A stretch of DNA of 64,000 nt from a virus, in IMG/VR virus record IMGVR_UViG_3300045988_072096. One strand, written 5' to 3'. The position numbers and the translations under genes are program-made. The notes beneath the pieces were generated by a model. It had not been told where the DNA came from and searched no databases. It saw only the letters and a list, made by a program, of their open reading frames with translations. Positions 3,001 through 36,288 of the stretch are shown piece after piece. The stretch's first letter is position 1. Each line of letters begins with the position of its first letter.

Positions 3001-5132
3001 ATAGTCGATTTGGTATTATAATCATAATATCCATTTGCATCATCTAGATATTCAAAGAATTGAACTAATAGCGAATCCTTCCCGTCTGCTGTCTTCCATG
3101 TGCCGTCTGACTATCTATGTAATCCAAATGCTGCTGCTAATCGTAACTATGTAGATTGCATTATTTTGCTTTGTTGCTATTCTACAAATTTATATCTAGC
3201 GTCTTCTACAGCCTACATAATGTCCGTATTTGGATCTTTTTCCAATCTTTCTTTTACAGCTTCTACTACAAAATCATCTTCTGTTTGAGATAGTTTTGTT
3301 AAGATAGTTTCTGTTTCAGAGTCCTATTGAGATTCAGACTCAGTAGATTCAGAGTCAAGTAATTCGTCTACATTTATGGAATCATCCGCATACTTTGATA
3401 CAGCCTGTTTTGCAATTTCCTATGATTGATCGAATGTATATCCATTATTATCCAAAATCTATAATACAACGCCTTCAATCTAAGATTGTGAGTTTTTATG
3501 AATAGAGTTGTCGATAATAGATACAACATTTTCTAAAGCGTTATTAAATTTATTTTCATCATACGCAGGAATATATTTAAGTAATTCCCTAAAGTTTGGA
3601 TTTGATACAAATTCTGCAATGAACTCGTGTTCGTTTTTAAGTCCATATACGTCGAGCATTGAAAAATATCTTGATTTATTAGCATTGTCGTATGCATTTA
3701 GGTAATCTACATATCCTCTAAGTACTGCTTTTATTTTAGGGTGCTCGTCTATATATCTACTAGTAACATAATGTACCGCTTCGTGTATTATAATATTACT
3801 TATGTGCGTATAACTACGAACGTTATTATTTAACGATATGACTTGCCCGTCTTCATCGTAGGAACAAACGCCACCGATAGATTCGTATTGTTCATTGAAT
3901 TTAAAAAAATAAACTTTACCGTTTGTATATCGTTTCAACGTACTAAGCAAACTACCAATATAAGTTTTTTGTTTGCCTTCCGGAGTAAAATTATAAATAA
4001 TATTTACCAGATTGGATAGCGAATTTTCTTTTTTCAATAATCCTCTAACGAAGTCAATATTATATTTATCTTCAAATATAGCAGAGTCTCTTGCGTTTTC
4101 ATATATAGCACGAGAGTTCTTAGCTAAAGAATTATCGTATATAGAAGCATATTTAACAAACTAGTTATATAATTTGTTTTTTATCTTATCTGAAACATTT
4201 GGTTTAATATCTACTATCTACTTAATTCTTTGCAATTTGTTATATTTTTGCTACAAAGCCATTTTATGTAAATTATGGCCTTCTATGAATATCTGTATCG
4301 CAGTATAAGCTTTGCCTTTTTGAGTCATTAATTGATGTTTATAATGTCCAAAATACTTATTAAGCTGTGCTTCAGTTATACCTGCTTTAAACAAATTTGG
4401 AAAGAATTGTCGTATTCTCTATTGTGTTATTATATCATAATCAGATATATCAGTAGTGTGTTTTCTTAAGAACGATAGCATGTTTTGGACATACCATTCT
4501 CCATAAACAGACGAATTGTCAAGCTATTTTTTATACTCAGATATTTTTTCCTAAAGTACTGGTTGTAAATTTTGACATATATAGTCTATTCTATTGTACA
4601 CATCGTCTAATGATACGTCACCTTCTTGTACACCATCTAATTCATCTCTTGTAAATAAACCTACTCCAAGTAAATCTCTTACGTAGTCATTGTATCTTAC
4701 TAAAAAATTACGATAATTGTCTACATCTTGCAGTTTTCTTAGTTTACCTTTTGTTATTCTAAGTTTACTAACAAAATTAACGTAATAATCCAATAAATCT
4801 TCTGGTATATGTTTTTCTATCATTCCAGAAAGTGGTTCCCTATTCTCATCTTGGAATACTGTATCCATATTAAACCAGTCACCAAATTTACTAAGGAACT
4901 ATTTTGTGAACACTTTAGCTTTTGAAGCAATTGCTCCAGCTATCATTCCACCATGTATTTTAAGTAGGTCTTGAAATAGTATAGAAGGCTCCCCATTGGG
5001 AGCCATGTCTATACTGTTTCCATTATTTTTAGACCATATATCGTAGGCACCTACTTCTCCTACAACGTCTTTAATCTAATTAAATTTCTCAGCAACTTGT
5101 GGTCTACTGAGTATTGGACACATTATTGCCAT
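1..5132 (-). CDS. Very large virion-associated protein, 3' end cut by the window edge (at least ~1,710 codons). It has two zincin-type HExxH motifs and requires TAG read-through.
   Basis: The seven listed minus ORFs 192..401, 774..1103, 1401..2408, 2598..2792, 2796..3002, 3480..4037 and 4551..4868 all share one frame (end coordinate = 2 mod 3). I walked every gap in that frame and found only plus-strand 'cta' (TAG), with no TAA or TGA. The ATG at 5132 lies 5 nt after the TAA of the upstream giant ORF. HEMAH is encoded at about 2928-2945 and HEAVH at 3771-3785. Confidence 0.7.
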
Positions 5133-5137
5133 ATTAT

Positions 5138-8100
5138 TTATCCTTTACAATGTTTACGTACTGTATCATCAAATTTATCGCTTGATTTAGCTTCTTCTTT
5201 TTCATTTTGTAATTCACTTCTAGCTATCGTTAATGATTTCGTAACTCCATCTTCATTACCTTTACGTATTATTTTAGCACTTTTTGTATTCAAGAGCTGT
5301 TTTAAGATTTTAGGATTCTATTTAAACGATTCTTTCATATTGTCAACCATCATGTCCACTGTAACCCTTACACTTTCATCTCCATATTGAGCTCTAGTGT
5401 CATTTAATGTTTGTCGCATTACAGTGTATGCTGAAGAACTATGCAATTCGTTTAATATTTTATCTTTAGCGTCTTGTGGAATCATCGAACTGTTCATTAC
5501 TGCTTCACAGTAATTAGCCTGTATTACATTATCATACTATATACCATTTTTTGTAAATGGCCTATTATACGTATTGCCAAATTGTTCAGCGTCTTTATGA
5601 GACAGATCGATCGGTTTTACTTCTTCTATATCATCAACATCGAAGTCATCATTCAATGAAGTATCTGATTTACCTTTTTTCTCGGAAGATTCTTTTTCAG
5701 ATTTTGAATATTTATCAATTAAAGCTTGCATATAATGCAAAATCTCATCTTCATCGTTCTATAAATTCTCTGACTTCTCTAGTGATTCAAGCTTTGCTTT
5801 AAAGCCACTATAAATATCATTTGGAGATCTCTTTATTGCATCATAATACAGTTGTTTAACCTTTTCTGCAAAATCTTTAGCACTAAGTTGTTCTTTTTGT
5901 AATTCTTTAATCCTCTCGTCTTTAACTTCAATGTCTTTAGCTCGAGATTTAAATTCATCAAGACTTTCTTCTTTTACTTCAGATTTAGCTTTATTTAAAT
6001 CTTTTCTAATCTTAGTTAGTATCTTACTTAATACACCACCTTGCTGTTCTACACCTTTAGAATTCTCATGAGAAATTGTCTTATCACCAGTATCTAGTAA
6101 TGCCTTTTTAGCTTCTTCATTCTACTGGAATGATTCTGTCATATATTTGGCGAGTAATTCATTATAGTCGTCACTCCACTTATTTGTATCAAGACCTTCT
6201 ATATTCTTACCATCTTTACGTGCTTGTATTGCTGATTCATCAGAAACTTTTTGCAATTTATCAAACAGTTCTTGTCCTTCGTCTGTTAAAATAATGTTTC
6301 CAGAAGCATCTCTCTCTTTTACATATTTACCTTCATCTGTATATAATAATTTAGTAGCCTAAATAGCGCCTTCAACAGAATTAAATTCAAACTTGCCTAA
6401 CCCGTCTATAGTAGCAGTAAACTTACGCTCTGATAGATTACTAAGTTCTCTATGTTGATCGTTGCCATAATGTACGTTTACAACCTTATCATTAGTTTTC
6501 TTATCGGATTTTTCAGTAGATTTACCTTTAGATTTTTCATCAGAACGCAATTTTATACGATGATCTTCATCTATATATTTACTGATTATCTCCTGAAGTT
6601 TAGTTTTAGTGACGTCTAATTCGTTATACTCAAATTCATCACCTAAACGTTTAATTAATTCAGTTTCAGTAAATAAAACCGGACTATTGTTGATAAGATT
6701 TGCAAATTTATCAATAAGAGTGTCTTCTGTAAATGGCTTATCTGACATCAAATGCTTACCGCTGAAGAATTTGTTTATAGCTTCTACTGTAGTATCATCA
6801 TACATAACCGGTCTTGTATATTGTGGTCTAATATAATCGTAATTATAACTTCCTGCACGCAATGTTGTAGAATTAGGTATAGTAATTGCGTATATCGGAT
6901 AAACGCCTTCTCCTGCACTTGCAGTATTTAAAGGTTTTGTATCTACAAGGCGATACAGTATGAAATTATCTGGGTCATATTTATCAAATCCGCGTTGTCT
7001 TACTTTTATAAATAACGGGAATTCCTACATTCCAGTTTTTTCATTCATAAAAGGTTTTATTGTAGAAATACGTTTTCCGTCTTTAGGGTTTGTTTTTACA
7101 CATGCCATTAATAAATTGACAGTCTTAGATTTTGATCTTGTGATAAAACTAGGTTTCCCGCCAGATTTACGCTGTTTCTGCACTAATATTTTCTTTGTAG
7201 AAACAGCTTGTGTGTAAAACGAAGCCTGCCATGATTTATAACGTTTAGTTCTAAATTCACGTACGATTTGTGGATCTGTCCAGTTATTATAACAAATCAT
7301 TGCGTACATTTCATCAGAATCCATCGGATAGGTTCCATCCTTAAAGTCGTCTTGTGCATTCGCCATTAAATCATTATATCCAGAATCAATTCTAATTGTG
7401 TTTGGAGCATACTTAAAGAACTTAGTTCCGCCTGTAGTGTCACCAGAAGTGTAAAACGCATATACAAATAGGTTTTCAGCAAATTGCTTAAATGTAATTT
7501 TCTGTTCTCCGTATTCTATGTAATGTTCTTCATCGTGATAGAGTTCGTCCCATGCGCGTTCTATTGCATTAGCGTTGTCACTATCATCGAGAACTGCATT
7601 TTCCAATTTTATGAATTTTGGATTAGCATACCCTTCTCTTTCTTGATATACGTCAGCCTATAATGCTTTTAATAGGGGATTTATTATAGTTCCATTAACA
7701 CCATAACTTGCAAACGAACCTTTCTTGTCATTTCTGATTTTATTCTATATCTTAAGTAGCTGATCTTGAATTGTATTATCGCCAAAAAACAAGCTTTCAG
7801 CATAATCCATAGCTGTCATTCCTCTATCTTCTGCATAGTCAGAGACGATGTCATCATCAAATATAAGCTATTTGACAACTTTCATCATACATCTTGATAC
7901 TTTTTTGCTCAATTCTTTATTTTGTTCAGAAGAATGGAACTTTGCCATAAGATCACTATGCATGTCTCTATATTGTTCAGTTCCTTGCATAGAAATTTGA
8001 CTAATTATACGTTCATATAAGCTTAATGCATTATTCGTCTTTTCCCCAATAAACGATTCGTTTTTAAGTCTATTAAGACCGTATTGTTCAAACAGTCTGT

Positions 8101-11100
8101 CATCGTTATCAAACACATCGTTGTATTTTGACTTAAACGCCTATTGTTCAACATAACTCTTACCTTGTTTTTTTGTATCAATTTTACAAGCATTAACTAA
8201 ATCAGAAAGTTTTTGTCCATATTTAGACATTTCCTAGTTTATATATGCCACGTACAATTGTACTTGTTTTGGTGATAAATCTATTGTTGTATCTACAAGT
8301 TGGCCATCATCGTTCTATACTTTAACATTAATTCTATATCTAGAAATCTTGTCTTCAAGATTATCAAACGACAATTCTTTATTTATATTATGTAAGACGT
8401 CCTTATTATTAAATATATCTTCAAGTATGCATCCAGATTTTGTTATAATCTCTCCATTATCTTGGATATATTCAAACTCGTTGCTATATGAACCATCGTC
8501 ATTTATTCCAAATAATGCTTTTGCAAATGATGCTATTGATTCCTCTACGTCAGTATTATTATTTCCAATATCTTGTAATGTCTTCTTTATATTTTTAAGA
8601 TTTCCTGTATTTGCGGCATCTTTAAAGTTATCGAGTATATAGTTAGTAACTGCAAATCTTTGTCTAGCAGCTTTGGATATAGTAATATCCTCCATATAAT
8701 TTCCACCTGCCGTTTCGTATACAGAAGCAAGCTCTTTCATAATAGGCTGCGATAAGAACATAAATGTACGCTCTCCCATACCTGTTCTAACTAATAAGTT
8801 AGTTGTATTATACGTAAACGTATTGATGTTTAATCGCTATATATACGGATCTTTGGCTACGTCCACATGAGCATTAATTAATCCTGATAGCCAAGATAAT
8901 TTTAAATTACCCTATTTATCTTTAAGACTGCTTAAATCAAGACATCCTAATTCTCTAAGAAGAGGACAATGGTCTGAGTCAAATTTAACACCATATAGCT
9001 GAGTTAAAATTTGACTATTGTTATTTAACGCAAACGGACCAATTCCGAATTTACCAACCACAAAGGATCCTCTAGTTCGTACCTAAAATGCAATATTACC
9101 AAACTTATATGCATATTCTTCTTGAGCCTATTTGTTTGTTTCAATTTTAGCCAATACGTTCTTGACAAGATTTGTATCTGAATCGATAGAGCGTAAACTG
9201 ATACCTGCACTTGCGCCATTTACAATTCCATTCTTTCCGAGATCTTTTCCATGATCTTTTAATATTGTAAGATAATAATTAAGAAGATTATTTCTAGATT
9301 TATCTTCAGAATCTTTCTTAAAATCAGTCGATACTTTGTCTATGGTAATCTTCTTTCCATTAGATTCTACCTCAATCTTATATGACCTATAACTTAATCT
9401 TGACAAATACAGTTTATCGATGTCGAAGTCAGAACCCGTAACCATTGTGAACTCTTTAGGAAGTACTATTGTATCTCTAACTACTGGCAAAACATCAACG
9501 AATCTTAATGCATGAATTGAAGATTGAGCCTGTGTAGGAATACGTGAAGCTATAGTGTTAGCTTTAGCATCTTTTCCTATAATCTTATTCTTTATAAGCC
9601 ACTTTCTACTTGCCTCAAAATCGTTTTTAAGACCTTCTGGTATTATATCCATAAAGAAATCTATAGATATAACAGCGTCCATACTTCCTTCCTCATTGAC
9701 AAGCTTAAGTTCGTTTCCATCATTAATTGTAGGAGAAAGTTGGTCGTCACCTAATATAGTCGGTTTACCTTCCATACTCCAGACAGATCTTTGATAAAAA
9801 GCATTTCCTTTTACATTAATGTCTACTATCTTTTTGTTTAGCTTTGCTACAAGTATACTCTGTATCCAATCGATAGAGGACATTGCTTCAAGATTAACTT
9901 TAAAATGTTTCTTTCCATCATTATCGACCTCTACTTGAATGCCATCAATCAAATTTTCATCAGCATCACGTGATTCTAATTCTTCTTCTAGGAATCTACT
10001 AAACTTTTCGATGTCTAATTCTCCAGAATCGTCAAACATCTCACGCTCGAGTTCTTCCATTCCGTACGTAGACAAATTATTGATCTCACGCATTATTTCT
10101 CGCAATAAATCTCTACCACGTAAAGTCTTTCCATCTGGAGTAGTATACTCTTTATTTTGTATAAGACTAGTAAGCGCAACTTTCGTCATCTGTGTACCCA
10201 TTTGAGCAAATTGCTTTTCATGAGGATCTGTATTCAACTGTTTACGTATGAATTTATATTCTTGATCATATGTATCAAACTAGAATGCTTCAAATGCCTC
10301 CTTGTCGTTAAGTAGTTTCTCTGTCAATTCTGCAGGAGATTGAGAACCTATCTTAACGGCACTATGCATCATTAGCATATCTATGTGTTGAGATTCCATT
10401 TTACTAAGTATTTGTTGAGTATATCCGGTGGCCATTTGCTTGAATAGTGGGAATAATGCAAACTTATTATAGTACTGTATTTTTATATCTCCTACAGGTC
10501 TATATCCATATGCACTGTATTTTTGTGCACCAAGCATTGCTTCGTATATAACTTTAAATGCCTACTTATTACTAAGAATATTGCTTTTTCGCTTACCCTC
10601 TAGATATTCAAAGGCCTCTCTTACAGGTTGTGTATACTTTCCAAGTTGACGTAATAAGTTTTTAGCCATTTTTGGTGTTATAAATGCAGCACCGTCTGCC
10701 ACATTTATCTAAGCTCTGCCTTTTTTATCAAGTCCAAATGAAGATGCTTCGTCTTCACCACGCTTTTTTGCTACATTAAATAAAGTAATCTAACCAGCAG
10801 ACTCAAAATCATTCTTGATTTCATCAAGAGACATCTCATTTACACCATTTTTTCCATATATCCTATCTGCAAGTTTGTCTAATTCATCTTGATCAACTAT
10901 ATCCTTAGACTTATATTCATAATAAATTTGACGTATTTCTGCATCTTGGAACAAAGAATTAAGCATATCCAATTGGTTAGATACAACCATTTGATCTTCT
11001 ACTTCTGCGCATTTATATTTGCTACGTATTCCAACCATATATGGCCTATTTCTTTCTCCAGTAGAGCCAAGACCACCAAGACGCTTAGTTTGATCGCTAT

Positions 11101-14100
11101 GTCTATCTACAAGACGTTTTACGCCATTTACAATGTCATATACCCATTTATATGATATCGGATTTCCAGTATATAAACGTTCTATTTCTTCTTCTGAGAT
11201 AATACCTCTTAAATATACATCCCACATATAAGCAAGTACAGCCTAACTTCGTGCTTTTGCTGCATTTTCTATTGTTATATTAGATCCACTTGGAGTTAAT
11301 TCAGCTTCATATTTAGCTTGAAGCTTATCTATACATACACTGTCGAATGCGACGTTTTTATATGTATAAAGTCTTCCTAACTTCTCAACACCTTCGTTGT
11401 CGTTTACAATTGCTCCACAATGTTCTGCTAAAGCTAAGTCATCGTAAAAACCTTCTTCCAGTGTTAATGCCATCATTTCTGCGCGTTGCTTGTCAGTAAC
11501 ATGATCTCCAAAGAATAAATCATCTGCTTTTTGTAAATAATACAACGGATCTTTATCGCCAGTTAAATGTAACCATCCGATACTTCCATCGTCTTTTCTA
11601 TACGCAATCTTCGTCAAAGAACCAAAGCGCATTCTATTATCACTAACACGCTCTATCTTTTTCAATATATTAAGAATAGATTTATCCTTTTCTTCATTTC
11701 GTTCTATTTCTCGTGCTATGGCATTTCTTTCACAAAAAGCATATTCGATCATCTGTCTGATCTATAAATCATATGGATTTACGCTTATGTGTAATTCACC
11801 GCCAACTTCTGTTACATGTAACAAATCGGAAGTCTATGTGTTTGTAATATTATGATAATCGATACCAGGAGTTTTTATTCCATCCAAAAAGAACCATGTT
11901 GATTTATCACTCAACGTAGGAAATACAATTCTACCTGCAGCAAGCATACCGCATTTACCTACAAAATCTTCACGCTCAGACGTCTTAGTATATTTTACAC
12001 CTCCTTGATAATCGCTATCAAGTCTAGCACCATTGTATGTCTACAATTTAAGTTTAAACTTATCTCCTGTAGCAATATACTTCATTATAAGAGATCCTAT
12101 CCTTTGAATACGGCCTGCAACTTTTCTAGTTGACCAACAGTAATTCCACTTAGATGAATCTTTAAGAATTTTACTTCCAGTAAAACTATCATTTTCCTTA
12201 TCATACCCACCTTCATTGATATCTTCAGTCATATCATATGCAGTGTGTCTCTGTGCCATTGTGTAATTCTTAGTACCTTCTGGACCATTTGTCATAAGGT
12301 CTGTAGATGTTTTGTTATATCTGCTGACAGCTTGCGCACACCATTTTATAAAAGAGTTGTCTGAATAAATATTTGTTCCAGACGCGAATTCCCTACTTCT
12401 GCCTTCAATTACTTCTTTCTTACCGGTCATCAATATATCGTTAATTTTTTCTTGATTTCCTTTAAGTAATGTTTGGCACAATGAATTTCCATTTTTATTA
12501 TATACGACAGATTCTATGAACTTCTAAAATGACAGATCTTGTTTAGCACTTGTGATTAGATATCCAAATGCCTTCTAAATAGATATTCCATTGCCGATAG
12601 TATCAAAATGTTCTCTTAGAGCCATTTCTAATGCAGGCTTTTGGATATCTATACCCAAGATATTCAAGCTGTTTATAAATTGCTGTTCGATATATATAAA
12701 ATCATCTTTGCTATTTTTATCGACATCTCTTTCTCCGATTTTATGTGTTTTTGCGACAGTTGTATACAATTTGTATATTTCACCCAATGTATCTTGCGCT
12801 TGTTTTAACAAAACTCTACCAGTTTCTTCTTCACCATTTTTAACAAACTTTATATTTCCATTTTTGTTCATGAAGAATATTCCGCTAACTCCAGTTCTAA
12901 ATTGTGCGAACCATTGCTTAGGGAACATACTTGCCGCATAACCACTATCTGAAGATTTAATACTGCTTGTATATTTACCATCCACTGGCTGTCCGTCCTC
13001 ATCGTGTACTTGAGAGAATACTACTTGCATAAAATCAAGTTTCTAACATGATACGAAATTAAATAACTGAGTAGCTAATGCTTCACTACTTGTGGAATCT
13101 ACATCGTAATCATATTCACTGATTACATTTCCGCTGTCTTTTCCATCTTTATCTGCTGATGTGAAATAAATTCCGTCTTCTCCATTATGCTAGAAATATG
13201 AGTTTTTCTTTAATGGTTCTCCATCTTTGCCAATCAGTATATACTTACCATCATCGTGTTTTTTAATAGAGTTATTTAGCAAAGCATTTAGCTTATGCTC
13301 AAGTCTATAAAATACAGGTTCAGTTTCTGCTAATTCATGAAGTTTCTACAATAGATCTTCTGCAGACTTACAATCGTGACATGCAGATAACAATAGATTC
13401 TTAACCTGGTTTCTAGGTACATATCCTGTAAAGCCTAATATTCCTCTATTGTTTGGTATCATTACTCTACTACCATCTTTATTCATTGTAGATTTTACTC
13501 TGCCAACTTTAACGTCTTCTTCAGTAGCAAATCTTTCGTCTGGAATAGTACTTAACATAAATCTTACTGCAGCAGTTGTGTCTTCAGAACGATCGTGCGT
13601 GTAAAAAGCATCATCATGTGCCGCTATTTCTTGACCTATATATGAACTATTCTCATCATCTGCTACATCGTTTTCATCATCTTCTTGTTTCTGTAGTCTG
13701 TCTAATTGAGAATCGATTCCGAGAACCTATAAACGTCTATTTATTTTCTGTTCGATTATATCCCAATTATTCTTATCGAATAACTGAGCGAACATTTTTT
13801 GAGATTGATTTAAGTCTTCAAATTTACGCTTATTTTCCTGTTCACGTATAAGAATAAGGATTTGTTTCTTTAGTTCGTTTATATCACCCTTTTCTACTTT
13901 AGCTGCAGCCTATCTTGTTAACTCTGCTATTTCCTATGATCCGTAATTTGTCTTATAGTACTATATAGCATCTTGTACAGTCATACCGTCATTTATATAT
14001 TCTCCAGTTAAGACTCTAAAGAACGCAGAATGTTCAGTACTTTCCTTTCCGTGAAATAATTTTTGCATTGAGCTTAAATCAGTAACAATTCTTGCTGCAT

Positions 14101-17100
14101 TTGATGCAGTCATATCTATACTATATCCCTGAATGATTGTAGATACTATATGATCAAGAGCTTCTTCGAACATCTGCATTCCACCAAATGCAGGAAATTC
14201 AGACAAATCTATATGAACTCTTTCAGATGTACGTTTACCATCTTCATCAGTGTGGTAACGTTTTCCGCTGATGGTAAGATACATTTGCCCATTAAAATCA
14301 TTGACAAAACGTTCAATATTAGCTTGTTTAGGTTTAATGTGTCTAAATATTCCAGAATTGGCCATAATAAATAACATAGCGAATTTACGGTCTCCTAACG
14401 CACGAAGTGCTTGTATATATTCTTTTATTTCATTGAATATCTTACTAACTTTCCAAAAGTTATTCCACTTAATGCTTATATGTTCTCTGTCAATCATAAA
14501 CATTCTAAACATTTCTGCCAATCCTTCAGCTACATCACGTTCTGTAAGCTTTCGTCCATGTGATTTTTCAAAGGCCGCTCCGTAATGTTCAGCATATCTC
14601 TAGTAAATCTTTTTACGTCGTTTTTCTCCTACAAGTAATTCAAGTATTCTATGGAATGCTTCATGATATTGAGCACCTTCTGGAGCATGCTTACTTAATG
14701 TGATGGTATCTGTTGATATCATACCGGCTACTCTTGCTCCATTGGATAACGTTGAAAGTTCATGCTCTACGAATATTAGTGGAACATTGCCTACAAGACG
14801 CTTTGTTTCTTTTTCAACAAACCTCTATTGTTCTTCAGTTAATCTACTATTTGCCAATTGATCAGTGACCATAAGCATACCAGGAGCACCATCATCAAAT
14901 AGATTACCGTCCATCCAAGACGACCCATTACTAGCATCATCCAATGCTTGATCAATACTAGCATCATCCCAACCGTCATCGATTTTACGTTTATTTGGTT
15001 CTTGCTCAGTCTATTCGCCTTCTTTAGTCTGCTGTTCTTGACTTTTTTCTGGCTTATGTTCTGGCTTTATTACAGATTTTTCTTCAACTTTTGTTTCTTG
15101 TTGAACTCCAACCTATCCTCCATCTGATGCTGGTTTAGCATCGTCTTCTGCTTTTTTCTTTTCAGCTTCATCGGATGTTTTTTCTAATTCTGTTATGGAA
15201 ATCAGAGGATTTTGTAATGATTCTGCATTAGTTCTAGCGTACCCATGCTTTATCATCCATCCTGCAAAATCAAGACCTTGCTCATAATCATCTCGTGTGA
15301 TTTCAAAATCTCCAAATTTGATTCTAGTTATATTATAATCGGTATTTTCAAATATACGACACACGCTGCCAAAGAACCCATTTTGGTCGTTTAGTTTAGA
15401 GCGCATTATACCAGCTTGATTTATATGCATGTCGACCAATGCTAATATGCGTCTAAGTCTTGCTAAATCTCCAGCATCAGTAATATCTAAAACGATTGTC
15501 GGTCTTGTTAGTAGTTTTGTCTTAGGATCTACAACAGGAGCCTACTCCATATCTGTTATCAAAATCATACTTCGATTTTGCGTCTTCTAATCCGCTCCTA
15601 CTGCATATTGAAATATAAAATCGTGTCCAGCAAAACTTGCCTATCTACCAAAACGAGTTATCATTTTTAGTATCTGCTGGCAGCTTATTCGTGACATCTC
15701 ATTTGATACTTCACCTTTATCGTCATATATATGTATTCCGTTGAATATAGTATCAGTGTTCTGATCATTTGCACTCGCAATCTACTGCAAACAATTTACA
15801 ATTAAATCAACGTCATTAGTTTCAAATTTTTTACCTCTAAGTGTTATATACACAACACGCATTGGTGCATCTACTGGGTCTTCATCGTACTTAAACTTAT
15901 ATAAGAATACTACACTACCTGCTGGCATATGTTCATCTTGAGTAAGCTCATTTCCTGGCAGAGGAGTATATCCCTTCGGTAACGGTTTACCATTTTCGTC
16001 CAATTTATTTGTATCACCTATAGTAGATCTATTCGTGTCACTGATTTCAAATATTTCACCGTTTTTACCAACAACTCCAAGCAAACTATCTTCTCCATTG
16101 AGCAATTTAGTAAGTGTAGACTCGCCAACTATAAATTGTGTATCCATTAACGAATGGTTGTTTTCGGAATACACCAATTGTCCATTGGTACGTTTAACAT
16201 TTTTAGCTACGATATATTCACCGGGCTTCAATGAATTAAACAATGATCTGTATTGACGAATTAAATTTCTAGCCATTATACTGTAATTACTTGGATCAGA
16301 TTGTACGTCCGAGTTACTTCCAGGTTCATTACCTAATTCATTGCCCAAACGTATTCGCATAGATTTGCTAAATTTAATGACCTTACTGCCCTTTGGAGCA
16401 TATGTGATAGTTACATTAAACGTTCCGTCGTCGTTTCTATATATTTTAAACTGTGAATTAACTATAAAATCTGATTTTATTATTGATTCCAGATAATGAG
16501 GAATAGTCTTTAAGAAATCAATAGTGGAATGAAGATTGTTAAATTGATACCAATGCTATTTTCCAGCTTCAGGAACAATTTCAGTCTGGCTATCTTCCCA
16601 GTTTTTATCAAGTAAGTGTTTGTCCTAATTATTTAAACTATCTGGAGATGGAGAACTATCTGTTGAAGATTTATATTCTTCAAGTTCCTGATCAAACTGT
16701 TCACCAATTGAAACTATATTTTGTTTTAATAAATCATATTCCTGTAATATAGATGCATGACTATCATCAGATACTAAATTATTTATGTGATTAATAAACT
16801 AGTTTGCAAGCTTTATAAAATCCCGCATTTTATTTTCAAGATCGGCAGAAACCCAATGATAAATATCTACATAATCTAATATATCTTGATACTACTAAAT
16901 ACTACTCTATAAGTCATCACAACATTTCTAATAATATTCACGATGATTTGTAGCACTATCGTCGCTCTATAAGTAATTATCTAATGCAGAGAATTCATCT
17001 TCAACTATAGTTCCATTTAGATTAACAATACCCTATGATTGTACAGTACTCATGTGGTCAACATCATTGCCGGCGTTGTCATAATCTACATAAAATGGCA

Positions 17101-20100
17101 ATATTTCAAGAGATGTTACTTTTACTCCAGTTTGTTCTTGAATCATAAGCCTATACATATGAAGCTATCTAGCATATTGCTGCGCATAATTACGTTGATA
17201 TCCTGCACCAAGATTTTCATCAAAAAATGGCAATTGCGTTCTCACTTCCGCGCCTTCCGGAGCCTCCATACCGTCCTGTATGTTTTGCCATACTTCCTCT
17301 CCTGTTATAGGATTTTTAGATTTAAATTGTCTTGTTGGTTTAAACCTACGGCTATTTTTAGTAGTCTTAAAATCAAGTACGCGTATATTACCTTCTCTAT
17401 CAATAGCTATTAAGTCTGTTTCACCAGCTACTCTTTGGTGATTCGGTAGTGTAAAATACCATGTATATGGAGTCGTATCTACAACCCATCCTCGTTTTAC
17501 AAACTCTGCCTATATTTTTTCAAATTCTTTAACTGTGTCTTTAAATATAGCATCAGTCATTTTGTATTCAGGCTTATTTGTAAGATCTTCTCCAGCAAAA
17601 AACGCTCTACCTATTTCATCGACAATCTGCCCTGCAATTACAGCTGGTCCTGGTACTTTATTAGTTACAATTTCAGATATAGCATAAATAGTGTTATCAA
17701 TTTCGCTATCAGATAACATTTGCTGTTTCGTATACATTTCCAGATTGATGCTGTACCGTTTATACTCAAAAGAATCTTTTCCGTAAGTATCTGCAAGGTT
17801 TTGATTGTATTCATTCTGTAATGCGCGTATTTCATTTTTTATATCCTAGGATTTACGCAATCGCTATTCTGCGATCTTTTGATCAACACTTCGAGATATG
17901 TCGCCTACAAACTAGGGGCCTATTATGCCGTGTACACGTATAAATGACATGAATACATGTCCAACTTTAATAAAGTAGTTAAATGCAGTTACTACTTTAT
18001 TTCCGTCTTTATCAGACTTGACTAATGACTTATCTTCTTCCTACTTCTTCTTAAGTTTGTCTAATACCTCCTACTATTGCTCATTCGGAGTTACTCGAGT
18101 TTCTTTCGGTTGTTCAGACGGCTGTTCAATCTAATCTACATACTGCTGCAGCTAGTCTTCTCCGGCAGCTAATGCATCTATGTTTCCACCATCTCTACGT
18201 TCAAGGTCATATACAAAATTCCCGTCCGCACCTCGAATACCTAAAATTTTGTAAACCTATCCTCCGTATATAACTTTATCTCCAGTTTTGTATTTTGGGG
18301 TATTATCTGTAGCGTCGTTAGCAAGTAATGATATATCTTCAGTATTTACAGAATAAGTGTTTCCATCAGCAGTCTATACAAATACATGATTGTCTTCTGG
18401 TGCTATATTAATTGGGCGAATTACTTTTCCTACATACTATTCACCATTATATATAAATCGTACAGTCTTACCTTCTAATTGATCTGTAGAAGAAGCTGGT
18501 TTTTGCTCAGCTGATTCACTTGGCTGTTGCTATGCCTATTGTGTACCATTATTTGGCTATTCGATTAAAAGCGATGTAGATTCTCCAGTTTGCGTAGATT
18601 TATCTGCATTTTGATCCTAAGTTTCACTTGTAGTCTATTCTGATGTCGTAGCAGTAGATGGTTTTGTATTTTGTGTCTACTTATTACGCTCGCGTGCAGT
18701 CTCACGTTCTGTTAGAGAATCGTGATATTCCATTTTACTAAACTGAAGATCTTCAGAATCGATTTTTCCGCTATTCGGATGATATCTACGTTTTGTCCAA
18801 GTTTCAGTACCATCTTTTTGTTTTTTACGATGTGTAATATACCAGTGACCGTCATTACCCACAAATATGTCGTTGTCTTTAACTTCTCTTACTGCAGCGT
18901 CTTCAATTCTACGAATAGAATTTACGTAATCTTCTTCAAGAATACGATTTATATTTTTATCAGTCTGAAGTTTATTATCATACATTTTAAGTTGATGATT
19001 CGGCATCTGCAGAAGGTCATTTAGCATATGTTGTTGTAACAATGCGTCATATTCTTGCATATGTCGTTGACGATATAGTCGCGCGATTCCATCAAATTGG
19101 TTGTCGCCATTAGATAAATAAACATCATTGTAATCAGTATCTTCTCTAATATTGCCATCTAATAAATCTTTTATTGTAAAATTACTTATATCAATACTTT
19201 GTGACTAAAGTGCTGGCTGTAATAATTGTATTAAAGTATTTCCGACTTCTGTATTATTGAGAGCCTTGAGTACATCTTCTTTATTTTCAACACGTATTCC
19301 ATGTTTTTCTAATGCCTTTTTTAGCATATTTGACTACATCTTGAAATGATTTGACAAAGAGTGTTCTTTGCCCATCTAATGTTCAAGTCTGCTGTAGTCA
19401 TCATACAACTGATAAAGTGCGTATAAAGATGCTAACGCTTTTGCATCATCTTCTCTCGTATCGCGATCAACATTTTGATCAACATCATCTTCATAGTAAT
19501 TATCGTCCGGCTCAATATGTGTACCAAACATCTTCTGTATCTCGGCATCAGTCTCCATCAACTATTGATATGACTCATTTCTACTATTAAGCCGATAATT
19601 CAATAACGAAACGAGCTTAGCATAATTTCTCTGACTAGAGCCACTCTTATAAAATGCATGTGGATTTATTCCAGCTCTTTGCGCTATTACATACATCTGT
19701 TCAGAATGAGCAAGATCGTAGATATCTTCACATGTTTTATACAGATCGTCTATTAATTCTCTAGGTATGGCATCTTCATCTTCTTCAAGTAAAGTTTCTC
19801 CGCGAGCTCTACGGTATGCATTTTCTCTGTCAGTAGCTCTATCGTGAGTGCCTACAATTCTTGCAAAATCTATAAACCGTTGTCTTGTGGTCTATTTATC
19901 TTCCATCATTGCTAATTTTGCAAGCAATTCTCCCTAAATTAGCTGAGTATCTGTAGTACGTTTTAATATATCTAGATTGTTTTGTATAATATCAATAGCC
20001 TTAACATCTGATCTAATTTTACTTGCCGACGTCATTAAAGATATTGATGGCTGTAATCCAAATAACGTCAATAAAGGAGTAGCATTCATTGATGGAACTA

Positions 20101-22738
20101 CATCTGCATCTGTATAGTAAGCAGGATCATTCTAGTTAATCCAATACCATACAGCTTTACCTCCAGTAATAATATCATCAAATGCGCGTTTTGCTAATCC
20201 GACATTAGACTATTGATCATATCCCCAATCACTATCTTTTGCTTTTTGGGCATTTAATCCTTGTACACCTTCTTGCGTCATTTCTGATGCAGTATTGATA
20301 CCCATACGCATTCCTACATTTGCGACACCTTTCGTTATAGCAGCAGCTTTCAGATATCTGCTAGGAACTGTTGTTGCAAATTGACGAACTCTATTAAATG
20401 CTCTAGCTATACCGCTTTCTCTTCCTATCCACTTTGCACCTTTTTCAGTATATCTAAGCGGTGCTGAAAGTGCATGTCCAACTTTTGCTGCGCCGTTTTT
20501 AGCTTTTATTAGTCCTGTAGTTAATGCACGTCCTGCCTCAGACTCAAGGGCTTTTTTAGCAGCTCCGTGAACTCCTTCTTTAAATCCAGCGAACTTTAAT
20601 CCAGCTGCTGTTTTTCCGAATTTCATTCTTGCCAATCTTCCAGCTGCTACTACTTTTGATCCTAATGCCAATTTTTCAATCGGCTCTAGACGAAGAGTTG
20701 TTGCTAATGTTCCAACTAAAGCATCAGTAGAGTTTACAGGTTCGTTTGCATAGAAAAGGTTATTTGTTCCTACAACTGCATCTCTATGTAGCATTGTTAT
20801 TTCTGGATTTGTAGAATGCCACATTCCATTACAATACATTTCAAGTATGCGCTGTTCGGTTTGCTCTTTATCGCCAAGTTTTTGTAAGTCCTTAATTTCT
20901 CCAAACTTACTCATTCTAGACAAGCCTTCTTTTATGAATTCATCATACAAGTTGTTGTTTATTAAAAAAGACCTCATCTAATCTGTAACCAGTGTACCTG
21001 CTTCAATGTTATTTTCTTCATTAGAAGCAGCTTTTTGCGCATTGTATCCGATACCGATAGTAGTGGCTTGTGTAAGTAATTTTGCTCCTACCAGTTTTCC
21101 AAAACCATATGTACCGCCGACAAGTGCAGATCCTGTACTTATTGCGCTTTTCCACCAAGATGAATTTGAACCACCAGCTATTCCTGACCAACCAAAAGCA
21201 GCCATTTTAATTGGATTTTTCCACGAATACTGTGAATATTGCAATGCTTCTGCCTCAGCTTTGTAATAATCGTCTACTTTAGCGCGGGCTTTTAATATAT
21301 TATCACCTGTAACCCAATCTTGAATATCTTTCAGATCAGTGGTATAATCATCCTACCAACCTTTAATTCTGTCTTCAGCAGCTGCATTGAAATTATTAAG
21401 CAAAGTACGTATTTTTTTAATACTTCTGTTGGTAGAATCAATCCATCCTTGATTGTATTCACGTGATTGCATTTTTTTAGCTAAGTCATCTGCCATTCCT
21501 CCTAATCCATTCAGATAATTTCTAATGCCGCCGATATCCAAATCTAATTTTGAATCTATTGCTTGTGAAATAAACCCCATTGGGCCTCCTGCAGACCATG
21601 TAGATAAGTTATTAAGGCTATTTCTCCATTCTGGATGCTCATTCAATGCTTGACGTATCTTTTGGTTTTCTTCAAGTAGTAAATTAAGCTTAGTCTTAGT
21701 GAGATGTAGTACGCCAGAATCAAGATGCGCATCATGACTTCCATATCCTGTAGCTAATTGTAGTTTTTGTATTTCTGCCAAATTATTAGCATATTTTTCT
21801 GTAAGTGTAAGGTATTTATCAACATCATTTGCCAAACCTTGTAACTCTTTAGCTCTAGAAACCTTACCTGTACTAATCTACGCTTGATTTTCGTTTGTTT
21901 TTATAATAAAATCCGACGCAAAACTTTTACCGTATGCAGAATTTACTGCTCCAAGAAAACTCATTGTGGTATTATACATACCACCAGTCCCTTGTACACC
22001 CATAGCATTGTAAGCATCTCCACTAATATCTTGTCCGTAATAATCATTAGGTTTAATTTTTTCAAGGTCTGACGCCTTCTTCTCTGCAGCTTTCTACTGT
22101 ATCTAATACTATTTATCGAAATCTTCCAATGCCGCTTTTAGGTAATCTGGATCATTCATTAATCGATAGTTATGGATCTCTAAATATTCTTTATCTGTTA
22201 AAGCTTTATTTTTATTAAGTTTTCCAAACGTACGATTTTCAAGTAAACGTCTATTCAGCCTTTCTACTGTACTCTCATGTTTTTTTGAATCAAGTATTTT
22301 TTGTAACTCATTGTCAAGATATCCTTGCGCAGCTTTGGTAGCTGGAAAAAGCTGCGCAGTACCAGTTTTGTCTTTTTTGGCTCTACGATTTGTTCTTTCA
22401 GCCCACGCTGCATATTCAGGCGACATTGGATCTGGAGAGATAGCGTCGTAGAAAGCATACGGATCTGCAGTTTTACTACTGTATTCCTGCGGAGACATTG
22501 TGCTGTATGCATTAGCCGGCTATGTTGGAGTAGGATTTTGCTGAGCCTATTTAGCTGGTGCATTTGAATTAGTCGGTTTTAATGTGTTATCCTACTCCTC
22601 TAATTCTTTTTTCTTTCGTTCATTTTCAGCTTCGATCTATAATTCCAGAGCTCTTTTTTCTTGCTCTAAAGCAACATTGTTGCCCATTACTTCTCGAAAT
22701 TGTTTAAACGAAAAATGATTTTTATCCTTTTTTGCCAT
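5138..22738 (-). CDS. Giant 5,866-codon virion (ejected) multidomain protein containing the crAss-type virion RNA polymerase module. It is translatable only with TAG as a sense codon.
   Basis: Twenty-two listed minus ORFs from 5537..5740 to 22109..22498 all have an end coordinate of 1 mod 3. I scanned all inter-fragment gaps in that frame: 87 in-frame TAG (hand count) and zero TAA or TGA between ATG 22738 and TAA 5138-5140. The ATG lies 6 nt after the upstream gene's TAA. DFDID is encoded at 9416-9430 in the context TGSDFDIDKLY, which matches the DxDxD metal-binding loop of the two-barrel crAss/YonO-type RNAP. HEAFH is at 14651-14665. A PD-(D/E)xK-like TDLIAID...VLDFK motif is at 17366-17416. 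Confidence 0.8.
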
Positions 22739-22743
22739 AACTA

Positions 22744-24441
22744 TTAATTTATTCTAGCGTCTTCAGTTGTTCTGCTCGCTTTATCGTTAAATAACTTACC
22801 AATATTTACATCCATAGATTCAGTTTCTGGAGCGGACCTATCGTCATAATTCGGGTTTATAATGAAATCTTTATTTTTTACATCTACAGAGCTTCCTTGA
22901 GTGGTTATATGAGTATCGTACCAATATGTATCTCTTGTACGATTCCATTTTCCAGATTTCTTTATTGCTTCATTACCATTAGCGTTCATCACATCTTCAT
23001 CGCTCTTTTTATACCAAACTTGTGTTTCAGCAAATGTTCTAACTTTACCGTCTTTACATAACGTAGTCAATATTTTTCCGGTAGGCCTCATTTTATAATC
23101 ATAATTATTGAAATCAACACTCTTATTTTGTGACAATACGGTGGTTTCGCCGGAATTGAGTTTAACTCTGGCCGTTCCGTACATATGGTTAGATACAGCT
23201 TTTGCAGAATATAATCTATTACCCATTGCGTTAGACAAAGAAACTGTATTATCTGGACCGACATTTAAACCTAACGACTTTGATACATTTGACGCTAAAT
23301 CAAAGGTACTCATATTACGTAAAAATTGAGTTCTAGTGTTAAATCTATTTGCATGTACTTTCTTTCTCTAAGCGGTTTTGATATCTAATGTCAACTATTT
23401 CATATTATCCGTTTTACCAGAATTAATATCTTGCAATAACGATTTCTTTATATCATTTACACTTCTTCCACTAATATGTGCGAATCCTGCAAACATATTC
23501 TCAGATATGTGCGAATGTCCTTCACTGCCACTACCGTCACCGTTTCTATATTTTGCAGCTTCTCTAGCATTTATTTCAGCCATTGTGAGCGCATGTTCAT
23601 ATTTTTTGAGTGCAAACGGATCTACTTCATATTTATCGGGAGATAAATAACGCATGTTCGCGTCAGCTATACGTCTATCTAATATATCATATGCTTTATT
23701 AATAAGCTCTTCTTTAGACGCATTCGGATTTTGTTTTGCAGCTTGTTCTTGTGCCAACTTCCACTCGAATGCACCTCTTGGAGTATTGATGAAATCTTGA
23801 GCGTTTGATTTTGCAGCGTTCAACAGATCATTATAATCATATGAATATCTTCTCTGTCCATTTTTCATGCCTTTGTACAACGGCTGACGTCCTTTGTATA
23901 TATAGTCCGTAACCTCTCCTAATCCCTAGAATGGACTAAATGTGCTATTGTATACACCGTCTTTAAGTGTATCCCAATCTTTAAAGCTAGCTCTACCGGC
24001 TTGCTGATCTAAGAAATCTTGATAAGCTTGACTATATAAACCTTTAGATTCAAGTTCGGCTTTAACCTTCAACGCATTTAATCCTTGCAATGCAGATGCT
24101 TTCAATTTAGCAAGTTGCCCACCAGGAGCTGCTGCTATAGTCTATGCAATCCTAGCTCTACCTTCTTGGCTACGTATCATGTCTGGGCCGTAATTCTATA
24201 ATAAATTACGTATTGGTTCATTTACTAGTTGATCCCAGTTCTCGTTATCTTTCTCATATGGACTATAGAATTCGCCATATTTACTATTATATTCTTTTAA
24301 ATCCTATGCAGCTTGCATATAATCTTGGCGCACAGCATTTGCATAATTCTACTGTGCTGCCAAGAATAATTGTGCAGTTGCAGGATCAAACATGTCATCT
24401 ATCTTATAGATAACAGGTTGTTCTTGTCCTAGTATATTCAT
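22744..24441 (-). CDS. Hypothetical structural (tail-module) protein, 565 aa with TAG read-through
   Basis: ORFs 22744..23313 and 23395..23880 share a frame (0 mod 3) and are joined through TAG codons. The frame stays open upstream to ATG 24441, which follows an in-frame TAA at 24481-24483. It ends in TAA at 22744. Confidence 0.65.
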
Positions 24442-24448
24442 TGCTATA

Positions 24449-26851
24449 TTATTTATATAGTGCCGTATCAATCCGTGGAATTAAGTTTTGGAAATAGTAT
24501 GGCTAACTATTTCTCCACTTGTTATATTGTCTAGAATAATCTGTTAGTGGATATTTCGGTGCGCTCAACTAATACATTATAGGAGTCTTCTTTTCGTACA
24601 TTGGAGTACTTGTTGCCATGTATTTATACAATCTATCACCAAATGATTGTCCAAATGGATTGAAACTTATTTTAGCTTCTGTACTCGAACCATTCTTAGC
24701 TTTATTTGAACTGTTCTTAGCATTAGCAAGATCTCTATTGAAACTCCTTTCTTCCAGATCTGCTTGACGGTCATATAAGTCAATAAGTCTATTATTATAA
24801 TCTTGAGCGCTTTCAAATTCTTGTTGCTGGAATAGATTCTTTCCGAGTGCTCCAAGCATATTAAGTCTACCTTGGTTAGCATTCTCCATACCAAGCAATC
24901 TACGTGCTACAGCCTCCCTATAAGCTTGCTGTTGCTGTGCAAGAGCAGTTTGTTGTCTAGCAGCATCTTTCTCACCAGCCTCCATTAGCGCTTGTGCATA
25001 AGCTTGTTTGTACTTATTATTAATATCGTTAGCTTCTCCATACAATTTGGCCATATTCATCATATAGTTGTTACCATGTGCAGCTAACATTTTAGTACGC
25101 TGTCCTGCACTAAGTCCGCCTTGTTGGTTTATATTATAGATACCTTGTCTATATGCATCACGTACCTATTGGGCTTGTTGATACGGATCAAAATGCATTT
25201 GCCCAAGTATACTCAATGCTCTATCTGCATTACTATTACGAACATAACTATTAGCAGCTTGTGGAGCTGAATTTTTATAATAGTTGTATTGGCTGTTAGG
25301 TATTCCGTATGCTCCAGCATATATTAATGGCTATAGCCAATTTAAATTAAATTTACCTTTATCATACTGAGGCATTGTGCCGTCATATATATTCTATATC
25401 TTATGTTGCATTTCTTGTCTATTTAACGGTTCTTTCGTGCTTTCTACAAGCTGCTATTGCATCAAGTCTAACTGCTTGAGATTAAGCTCTTTAGTTTTGC
25501 TGTCAGCATTTTTATTAGACTCAATTAACTTGCGTAATTTTTCATTTTTGGCATACTGCTTAGACATAGGAGCTACTTGATCTGCAAATGATTTTCCATT
25601 AGTCCAGTCTATATCGTTACCTGCAATGTAATTATTGTCGCCTTCTTGTACTGAACTATATTGATCATCTGCACGCTTTTTACCTTTGTCTATATAGGTC
25701 ATCTTACCTTCATCGAAGTTTACAATAGTCTCTCCTTTGCCAACCTTAGAGTTTATCGGACCAAGACGATACCCATCTTTATCGAATACCATTCCATATC
25801 TACCTTTGCTAGGTTGGTCTATTAAGTTATAATTTACAGCTGTTTTTCCTCTATCGGCATTGTATAAAGATGTACCAGTATAAGCATCATTATCGAATTC
25901 ATTTCTAAGTCCTTCTGATGCTGCTACAGATTCAGCTTGTTTATTCTGATTAGCGTAACTTGAAATCAAAGCTTCTTTTCTGCGTCGTAATTCGCGCTTG
26001 CGTCGTCTACGTCCAAATAATGACCCTATGCCACCTATGAGACCACCAATTAATCCACCACCAATGATTCCAAGCGGACCGAGCGATGTACCAAGCAACG
26101 ATCCTACTGCTAGTGCAGATCCTACACCAGCTCCTGCTCCAGAAATACTATTTGATAATATTCTATTATTTTCTCCGTATTTCAGCATTCTATCGTACGC
26201 AGAAGTATCTCCGAGGTTTTTAGTAGTATAATCAACTCCATTTACAGATTGAGTGATTTCATTGTGACTTTGGTCCATCATGCCTGAAGTTGGAATACTC
26301 GGACCTTTTGCCAAACCACTTCCGAGATTATATAATCCGTATGCAGCACCTGCTGCACTTAATGCAGTTCCAGCAGTACCTCCTAAAGCTGATGTTGCTT
26401 GTTTTGTAGTCTCCTATATTGATTTCTTGGCAGCTTCCTATCCAGCCTATTGCGCTCCAGCGGTTATTGTACTCCAAGGTGCGTTATCTATTGTATTATT
26501 TACGGTCGCCTTAAATGCATTATTCATCATAGTCTTCGCAGAAGCATCCAATGATGATTTAACAGCTTCTTTACCTGCTCCCGCCATTAACGATGAATAT
26601 TTTAACGCACCAGTCAATGGTTGTTTTAACACGGTAACATAAGGCATACCTGTACTTACAGCACCTTGCAATGATGGTTTATACATGCTGGCCTCTGCGG
26701 ACATATCTTGTCCTTGCTATATTGAAGGAGTACCTATGTTAAAGTTATCACTTTGCTAATAACCAGATGCAGTCTGTTTTGCTGCTAAATCATATCTAGG
26801 TAGTCCGTTTCGTATTTGTTTATATTGTAATAATCTATCTCTTTTATTCAT
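24449..26851 (-). CDS. Hypothetical structural protein, 800 aa, with a central Gly-rich hydrophobic segment followed by an Arg cluster
   Basis: ORFs 24569..25090, 25454..26314 and 26447..26704 share a frame (1 mod 3) and are joined only by TAG. ATG 26851 lies 2 nt after the upstream gene's TAA (26854-26856). TAA is at 24449-24451, 7 nt before the next ATG. It contains the segment GLIGGLIGGIGSLFGRRRRKRELRRRK. Confidence 0.65.
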
Positions 26852-34217: not shown

Positions 34218-34716
34218 CATGTTTTTTCAATTCAATTTCTACTCCAGTATAAGCCTCCCCTTTCTTCTTTAAGAATTTACTTAAAGCTCTCCAAGGACCG
34301 TTTGGATTCAATGTATTTAAATTTTCAAGTATTGACCATATTTCAGTTAATGTTATAATAACTGTCGCGCCACCTGTCAATACAAATACGCCTTCGGTAC
34401 CAAGAACTACATATTCAAGCATTCGTGCTAAACATATTATAGCGAACTCAGCTTTTATTTTATTCCATGTACCATGCCTAGTATGGTCACTAGTAATTTT
34501 GCAATGCTATTTCTTTGCAACAGCTATTCCATAGAACATATCTATAGTAGATGCAGTGAAACAACATGTGAGTAAGCCTATAATAGGAGTAAAGTAAGCA
34601 GTAATAAGTGCTCCAGCAGCAACACAAATCTTTCCTAGTATTGTGTTACCACTTATTGTATTTATAACTTCATAGATACTTGAGCACACTTTTATTATAG
34701 ACTATCCTAAACTCAT
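34174..34716 (-). CDS. Holin (Phage_holin_4_1 / TcdE-like family), 180 aa
   Basis: ORFs 34174..34422 and 34507..34689 are joined in frame through the TAG at 34507. ATG 34716 forms an ATGA overlap with the upstream TGA. It has several TM segments and the family-typical TEIWSILENLN motif. Confidence 0.7.
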
Positions 34717-35141: not shown

Positions 35142-35145
35142 ATCA

Positions 35146-36267: not shown

Positions 36268-36288
36268 ATTATTCGTGTTAAAACAATA

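Follow-up and report, generated by a model that had tools for sequence, protein, structure and literature searches.

Introduction

Gp45, Gp46, Gp47, Gp49 and Gp50 have been identified by mass spectrometry in virions of the phage ΦcrAss001, and a capsid 'cargo zone' has been proposed to house several copies of each cargo protein (PMC10172136). In the Cellulophaga phage phi14:2, the virion-borne gp66 (Protein Data Bank (PDB) entry 6VR4) is a stand-alone, single-chain, two-barrel RNA polymerase (RNAP) of 2,180 aa with a DFDID motif, which transcribes early genes despite rifampicin; fused polyproteins and a zincin domain were noted in the same work (10.1101/2020.03.07.982082). The literature already contains a 'single huge polyprotein' with a zincin protease, Guerin et al. 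described giant open reading frames (ORFs) of up to 15 kb (10.1101/295642), and a 2023 review reports crAss-like RNAP genes 'up to ~6000 aa' and treats giant RNAPs as a hallmark of the group (PMC10136315). Here we analyse a giant ORF of 5,866 codons in a 64,000-nt stretch of viral DNA (IMG/VR record IMGVR_UViG_3300045988_072096, hereafter the window). It is highly probable that a Suoliviridae-like crAss phage carries this ORF as a single late gene, TAG-recoded with a phage-encoded tRNA(CUA), and that it encodes a 667-kDa virion 'polyvalent' ejection protein.

The closest described counterpart is gp79 of cr130_1 (Chuhaivirus simiae, Suoliviridae, Oafivirinae; YP_010113266.1), a single RefSeq coding sequence of 5,801 aa with 74 in-frame TAGs. 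Like the giant ORF, it holds HEAFH followed by DFDID and a NADAR-like C-terminal segment, and occupies the same slot in a syntenic late block. In both phages HExxH and DFDxD share one ORF that lies between the cargo genes and a gp65-like gene, the latter being in cr130_1, as in the window, a separate zincin-bearing gene of ~2,000 aa. The two giant proteins differ in sequence, with ~29% identity over residues 2442-4702 only and an N-terminal ~2,400 aa that BLAST does not align. RefSeq names gp79 a 'DprA-like DNA recombination-mediator protein', not an RNAP. Related giants occur in cr114_1 (4,272 aa), cr131_1 and cr124_1.

In ΦcrAss001 the likeness is divided between two proteins, Gp47 (residues 1233-1928 and 2502-2752 of the giant protein, with YHEAFH) and Gp50 (residues 2881-5346, with DFDID), but their genes stand apart, one on each strand, are read in the standard code and lack a NADAR tail. 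Gp47 is, like Gp49, an RNAP-associated cargo protein, and it combines a nuclease with the zincin-like HExxH domain; Gp50 is the two-barrel polymerase. The polymerase of phi14:2 is homologous but free-standing; its neighbour gp65 (zincin) is the homologue of the gene downstream of the giant ORF, and gp67 has no HExxH. The layout also recalls the polyvalent proteins of phages and conjugative elements, large injected multi-enzyme chains in which a zincin-like peptidase is the commonest hub domain (PMC5512222, whose text gives no crAss example). The features of such proteins found here are a nuclease, an HExxH domain, an RNAP and two NADAR domains in one late-block gene, with delivery suggested by homology. 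Phage N4 delivers a virion RNAP (vRNAP) with its genome, as proposed here, but that enzyme is T7-like and not two-barrel, and the vRNAP of P23-45 is, unlike the giant ORF, fused to the tape measure (10.1101/2022.12.01.518664).

A preliminary description, made from the sequence alone, had called a fusion of this length exceptional in size. This did not hold: besides cr130_1 gp79 and the ~6000 aa of the literature, IMGVR_UViG_3300001525_000014, a relative with 6,075 codons and 124 TAGs, is larger, and the giant ORF was rejected as the largest of its sort. The same description considered the functions to be spread over several genes in known crAss-like phages, which is correct for ΦcrAss001 and phi14:2, but fusion is already well known in Suoliviridae. 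By these comparisons, the giant ORF is a new, divergent example of already described fusions.

Results

A single frame of 5,866 codons in a TAG-recoded late block

The frame and the tRNA gene that bears on its decoding are as follows.

5138-22738, minus strand: giant ORF, from ATG (22738-22736) to TAA (5140-5138); 5,866 codons, with 87 TAG as sense (probably Gln)
57463-57536, minus strand: suppressor tRNA gene with anticodon CUA, which would decode TAG (ARAGORN; anticodon loop CU-CUA-AC)

The reverse complement of positions 5138-22738 measures 17,601 nt, starts with ATG and ends with TAA, in DNA of 33% GC. Across its 5,866 sense codons the frame contains 87 TAGs, no TGA and no TAA other than the terminal one, and its longest TAG-free run is 384 codons. 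The two off-frames on the same strand hold 182 TAA plus 66 TGA (248) and 356 TAA plus 348 TGA (704), so that the absence of both codons from one frame lies far beyond chance and points to strong selection. This rescan agrees with the single uninterrupted frame that had been proposed for the case in which TAG is read, and the positions given earlier for the DFDID, HEAFH and PD-(D/E)xK motifs were all correct in the translation. The predicted product has a mass of 667 kDa and a pI of 5.5.

Under the standard code, the longest ORF on the minus strand is 510 aa. With TAG as sense, the strand resolves into tightly packed, syntenic crAss genes, every one of which is closed by TAA or TGA. Recoding of TGA was rejected, as reading TGA as sense brought no comparable gain in ORF length. 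TAG accounts for 1.5% of codons in the giant ORF, against 1-4.8% in most of its late neighbours. The amino acid was approached through alignments. In the closest relative found, IMGVR_UViG_3300045988_109035 (hereafter c008), the partner of a giant-ORF TAG is a Gln codon or TAG at 30 of 80 aligned sites, and the CAA/CAG Gln positions of the giant ORF show the same profile, their commonest c008 partners being Gln (67) and TAG (33). In three standard-code relatives, Gln fills 9.3% of TAG columns versus 3.4% of the background, a 2.7-fold enrichment. Metaproteomic confirmation of TAG-to-Gln recoding in Suoliviridae is summarised in a passage of PMC10136315. The presence of in-frame TAG in conserved late genes, the correspondence of TAG with Gln in alignments and the suppressor tRNA are what genetic code 15 calls for. 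We conclude that the whole late-gene block is TAG-recoded and that, from the alignments, TAG almost certainly codes for Gln here.

Six late-strand genes are free of TAG: the major capsid gene (40535-42061, minus strand; PHROG 11589, E=5.7e-123) and five further ORFs (39697-40458, 36343-37440, 34713-35180, 54251-55282 and 56822-57499). TAG may be disfavoured where expression is highest or where the product is required earliest. The late block meets oppositely oriented genes at three minus-strand tRNA genes, the CUA suppressor at 57463-57536 and two others at 58168-58250 and 58278-58353, which comprise an unusually long Ala(AGC) of 83 nt and Val(UAC). The suppressor gene shares sequence with the 5' end of the open frame at 56822-57499.

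The giant protein carries a virion RNAP module behind Gp47-like regions

A family hidden Markov model (HMM) of 18 members was searched against the proteins of phi14:2 and ΦcrAss001. The module and the matches are listed below.

6701-14179, minus strand: crAss-type single-chain virion RNAP module, residues ~2854-5346, with DFDID at 9416-9430
phi14:2 gp66 (solved virion RNAP), E=4.9e-80: gp66 residues 107-2061, window residues 2854-5227
ΦcrAss001 Gp50, E=2.1e-36: Gp50 residues 183-2386, window residues 2881-5346
ΦcrAss001 Gp47, whole-protein E=3.9e-41: Gp47 residues 1350-1932, window residues 1233-1928
ΦcrAss001 Gp47, second region, same E=3.9e-41: Gp47 residues 2008-2208, window residues 2502-2752

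The DFDID motif corresponds to residues 4437-4441 and aligns to residues 1361-1365 of phi14:2 gp66. A 744-aa query around the active site matched phi14:2 gp66 in the PDB (6vr4_A, E=5.6e-24), with TGSDFDIDK on the catalytic loop, unlike a 3,266-aa query, for which phmmer returned nothing from the PDB; PHROGs and Pfam gave no polymerase match in the giant ORF. All 18 aligned relatives keep TGSDFDID unchanged; K follows it in 17 of them and H in cr130. The gp66 alignment spans both sides of the gp66 connector (residues 946-1252 and 1318-1763), and the giant protein may hold two double-psi beta-barrels in one chain. The identification of a crAss-type virion RNAP from DFDID in the preliminary description is thus borne out by the 6VR4 match and by the gp66 HMM. 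Its assignment of the polymerase to the C-terminal third placed the motif correctly but underestimated the module, which takes up ~42% of the protein.

As the HMM matches run first through Gp47 and then through Gp50, the giant protein is a head-to-tail fusion of a Gp47-like and a Gp50-like protein. This agrees with the suspected fusion of the RNAP with upstream domains that are separate elsewhere, namely Gp47 and Gp50 in ΦcrAss001, and likewise in phi14:2. The junction maps to about residues 2750-2885, inside a TAG-free run (2714-2925), so the comparison of gene boundaries with relatives, which had been suggested as a check, reveals no terminating TAG at the Gp47/Gp50 boundary. An estimate from BLAST offsets had put the junction near 2880-3040, an interval with four TAGs; it was replaced by the HMM mapping, and those TAGs are sense in relatives.

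Relatives encode the same protein in one frame

The giant ORF of c008 has 5,516 codons, 86 TAGs and the same module order. A single BLAST high-scoring segment pair joins the two proteins over residues 7-5595 (50.8% identity). Most aligned TAGs have homologous sequence to either side, and only 7 TAG positions are common to both. At the TAGs nearest the junction (2926, 2935, 2943 and 3004), c008 encodes A, E, Q and R in a frame that goes on. The relative IMGVR_UViG_3300005282_000008, which uses the standard code, holds one ORF of 5,358 codons with no TAG, TGA or TAA inside, and further standard-code relatives have ORFs of 4,956 and 4,525 codons; this part of the evidence for one gene is independent of any assumption on recoding. 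HExxH and DFDxD share one ORF, ~1,460-1,770 residues apart, in 78 of the 78 relatives in which the ORF does not run into the edge of the locus. ATG occurs near 41% of the TAGs inside the giant ORF, versus 42-44% in controls, and hence shows no excess, and the two boundaries flanking the ORF (22733-22746 and 5127-5140, minus strand) are alike, each consisting of TAA, 5 nt and ATGGCAA. On this comparative evidence, the giant ORF is one gene.

A candidate zincin-like domain precedes the junction

14483-15235, minus strand: zincin-like metallopeptidase candidate, residues 2502-2752, with HEAFH; resembles the C-terminal part of ΦcrAss001 Gp47

HEAFH (14651-14665) corresponds to residues 2692-2696, with H2692, E2693 and H2696, and E2738, 42 residues past H2696 within a conserved E..LA[ED], is the candidate third ligand. 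In the pattern YHE[AS][FW]H ... E..LA[ED], the HExxH block is invariant across 55 distinct relatives, ΦcrAss001 Gp47 included. The domain matches Gp47 both by tblastn and by HMM (domain E=1.8e-23, Gp47 2008-2208). HExxH followed by a downstream Glu is the sequence signature of a gluzincin. The zincin motif noticed in the preliminary description is thus at its site and conserved, the fold itself being predicted only. The literature places a zincin fold in orthologues of phi14:2 gp65, whose counterpart in the window is the downstream gene rather than the HEAFH domain.

The upstream regions contain linkers and a putative accessory nuclease

19043-22738, minus strand: N-terminal region, residues 1-1232, with coiled-coil-like and Gly/Ala/Ser-rich stretches; kept only in the closest clade
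16955-19042, minus strand: Gp47-like region, residues 1233-1928, with a Q/T/E-rich linker and a nuclease; matches ΦcrAss001 Gp47 1350-1932, domain E=8.5e-24
17099-17491, minus strand: PD-(D/E)xK nuclease core, residues ~1750-1880; GETD (1772-1775)...D1789-F-K1791

The N-terminal region is conserved with c008, and with the relatives L009, L010 and L016 from about residues 463-774. It gave no Pfam and no PHROG match; residues 1-2600 found no match in a set of 5.8 billion proteins, residues 2601-3248 found only 3 fragments in the protein homologue search, and a search for related loci with residues 560-1032 found none, the N-terminal relatives having been traced by walking along the contigs of relatives. 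It may have an ejection or membrane-associated function. The 'Gly-rich hydrophobic segments' described earlier at 20300-21250 (residues 497-813) are indeed Gly/Ala/Ser-rich, but too weakly hydrophobic for classical transmembrane helices, as no 19-residue window in them reaches a Kyte-Doolittle value of 1.0. Linkers rich in Q, E and T, also described earlier, are seen in the translation, one at about residues 1346-1420 (18479-18703) and a second, of low complexity, at about 2520-2600.

The nuclease motif, DLIAIDREGNIRVLDFK at 17366-17416, corresponds to residues 1775-1791. The region matches PHROG 298 'exonuclease' (E=6.7e-8) and reaches 16.3 bits against Pfam PDDEXK_1, whose cut-off is 22 bits. 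The motif GETD/GEPD...D-x-K is fully kept in seven proteins (window, c008, L007, L009, L012, L016 and L086), and the copy in cr130 is degenerate, with D..D and no K; the PHROG match and the conservation in larger relatives support the PD-(D/E)xK-like motif of the preliminary description. By alignment, the nuclease is absent from the forms of 4.0-4.5k aa and from the three standard-code relatives. Its restriction to the larger members of the family marks it as an accessory insertion rather than a core part.

Two NADAR domains end the protein in a variable tail

5969-6460, minus strand: NADAR domain 1, residues ~5427-5590; Pfam PF08719 E=4.7e-13, PHROG 1017 E=7.7e-15
5141-5641, minus strand: NADAR domain 2, residues ~5700-5866, a tandem copy; second Pfam stretch

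The two NADAR domains had not been reported earlier. PF08719 matches in two stretches with 50.1 bits, against a cut-off of 35.1 bits. The copies are 37% identical over 70 residues, and in c008 one segment is the alignment partner of both copy 1 and residues 5708-5865. By contrast with the giant ORF, c008 has one NADAR and cr130_1 gp79 lacks the second copy.

Among 80 relatives, the tail past the last conserved polymerase block ranges from 170 to 1,404 aa. The enzymes found in tails are NADAR, a cpYpsA SLOG-like domain, an SF1 helicase with DUF1848 and DUF7831, and a second HExxH domain. Comparison with exemplars by BLAST separates the tails into at least 14 combinations; in roughly half of the relatives the tail is short, at ~245 aa. 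We tentatively propose, as a possibility still short of even likelihood, that the C-terminal end of the Suoliviridae polymerase polyprotein is a swappable effector slot. The general idea of such effector tails is covered by the polyvalent-protein literature (PMC5512222, PMC9503650), and a search of a paper collection that paired Crassvirales with NADAR returned only two unrelated reviews. We see the variable enzyme tail as a modest lead, short of a discovery. The RefSeq product names 'DNA helicase', 'exonuclease V' and 'DprA-like', which polymerase genes bear, probably go back to the variable tail. Names given to orthologues, 'nuclear pore complex protein-like' among them, probably label accessory tail domains and mask the polymerase, a reading drawn from the helicase and SLOG names.

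The gene neighbourhood is that of a Suoliviridae-like crAss phage

1-5132, minus strand: downstream gene, more than 1,710 codons with 29 TAG, ATG at 5132-5130, running off the window; phi14:2 gp65 homologue
22744-24480, minus strand: upstream gene, 578 codons; cr130_1 gp78 homologue and positional counterpart of the ΦcrAss001 cargo protein Gp46

With the polymerase region as query, tblastn pointed to Crassvirales, the best matches being Suoliviridae at ~28-35% identity. The GenBank phage collection yielded no megablast match to the full-length ORF, which implies that the genomes deposited there include only distant relatives of the window phage. Gene order between 38.9 kb and the window start corresponds one-for-one to cr130_1 gp66 to gp80. 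Seven of 13 cr130_1 neighbours are 54-77% identical, and the giant gene is 29% identical over its alignable part, a divergence that fits the reported fast evolution of these proteins (PMC7886860).

The TAA of the upstream gene lies 5 nt before the ATG of the giant ORF. The downstream gene matches phi14:2 g065, the zincin-bearing 'RNAP-associated protein', by tblastn (E=7.6e-7) across HEIMH and corresponds to cr130_1 gp80; in the window it is a separate gene. It has HEAVH at residue 450, aligned with HEIMH, and HEMAH at 730, which brings the HExxH motifs of the locus to at least three, spread over two neighbouring giant genes.

In cr131_1 (L004, NC_055902.1, 3792-21910), a mobile endonuclease gene is all that separates the giant into parts of 4,372 and 1,401 aa. 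The break falls within the catalytic motif: gp50 ends in ...TGSD and gp48 starts M-FDIDHLY, and the interposed 243-aa ORF has LAGLIDADG-like motifs. Most likely, this split is a group I intron in the active-site codons.

At the other end of the window, 61853-63523 (plus strand) is a standard-code ORF of 557 aa that matches thymidylate synthase twice, over residues 141-175 and over 477-550; the intervening endonuclease domain (PHROG 4645, residues 179-428) looks like an intein or an in-frame homing-endonuclease insertion. An open frame of 418 codons at 36223-37479 (plus strand) runs antisense to the late gene 36343-37440 and is probably a mirror ORF arising from codon bias.

Discussion

By analogy with ΦcrAss001 and phi14:2, from which its packaging, injection and role in early transcription are inferred, the giant protein would be synthesised late, after TAG becomes decodable, and packaged into the capsid cargo zone. 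It would then be expelled ahead of, or along with, the DNA, whereupon the polymerase module would transcribe early genes without the host enzyme and, in a predicted role, the nuclease and NADAR domains would act on host or defence targets. The putative zincin-like peptidase may divide the chain into its functional parts, either ahead of packaging or once inside the host, or may instead attack host targets. If the chain is cleaved, the low-complexity linkers at ~1346-1420 and 2520-2600 would be natural cut sites.

Whether cleavage occurs at all is the point on which a rival account fares best. The 667-kDa chain may work intact as one protein that is never cleaved, its HExxH domain acting on peptidoglycan or host proteins or being structural. 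N4 vRNAP (~3,500 aa), which also has an HExxH subdomain, is ejected as a single chain (PMC13434306), some peptidase-bearing polyvalent proteins are transferred full-length (PMC5512222), Drobysheva et al. name peptidoglycan digestion as an alternative role of the zincin, and we found no cleavage-site signature in the giant protein. Yet long low-complexity linkers mark the module borders and would be convenient for cutting, the same modules function as separate proteins in ΦcrAss001 (PMC10172136), and passage of a 667-kDa chain through the tail needs extensive unfolding. We regard an uncleaved protein as a possibility to be taken seriously, though not the one we would expect.

Decoding of TAG might also be deliberately incomplete, so that translation yields an N-terminal truncation ladder with little full-length protein and suppression sets the dose or timing of the polymerase. 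The 87 TAGs in series lend themselves to this idea, as does the concentration of crAss-like recoding in late genes, proposed to be a timing device (PMC10136315); the TAG-free capsid gene and five late ORFs suggest that TAG carries a cost. Against this, the catalytic polymerase lies behind 71 TAGs, yet its conservation is strong and every virion needs it, relatives with up to 124-135 TAGs in the same gene argue for efficient decoding, and the TAG density of the giant ORF is ordinary for its block. We consider incomplete decoding unlikely.

It is far less probable still that some of the 87 TAGs terminate, leaving a row of in-frame genes such as a Gp47-like gene followed by the RNAP. TAG is the stop codon of the host, and the homologous parts are separate genes in ΦcrAss001 and phi14:2. 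But the boundary homologous to theirs (~2750-2885) has no TAG, the closest relative reads on through the sites that follow it, a standard-code relative has the whole in 5,358 codons, and one frame is found in 78 of 78 relatives. Real boundaries here use TAA, 5 nt and ATGGCAA, ATG is not in excess near TAGs, and several same-frame genes without any TAA or TGA terminator would be very improbable. The unusual length is all that speaks for an assembly chimera or for a decaying pseudogene that makes no intact product, and this reading can be dismissed given the same architecture in ~80 independent contigs and RefSeq genomes, the strong selection against TAA and TGA and the invariant catalytic motifs.

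Several points weigh against the account of one TAG-recoded, multi-enzyme ejection protein that we favour. By calculation, decoding at 99% per TAG would leave ~42% of chains full-length, and at 95% ~1%, which implies that 87 serial TAGs demand near-complete decoding and would require host release factor 1 (RF1) to be outcompeted. For the window phage, the case is built on sequence. The zincin fold is predicted only: the domain has no Pfam, PHROG or PDB sequence match, and for P0002, a homologue with 40% identity, AlphaFold gave an unusable model (pLDDT 40.8). The nuclease domain scores under Pfam's curated cut-off, and for the first ~1,230 residues homologues were detected in the close clade only, so that any role for them is a guess.

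In practical terms, standard-code gene callers shred giant genes of this kind. The locus offers a worked example of how the real frame can be established, through a standard-code relative with a single ORF and a fusion point without TAG, and of how the product maps onto ΦcrAss001 and phi14:2 proteins. For the most part, the analysis confirms existing knowledge: in gut crAss phages of the Suoliviridae type, a single, very large TAG-recoded protein would bring the early-transcription machinery into the virion. Points possibly worth experiments are the decoding demand of 87-135 serial TAGs and the variable enzyme tail. If tails are injected with the genome, they would supply pre-made counter-defence enzymes, exchanged among lineages like polymorphic-toxin tips; NADAR, for example, could strip DarT-type ADP-ribose (ADPr) from DNA or destroy ADPr-derived signals.

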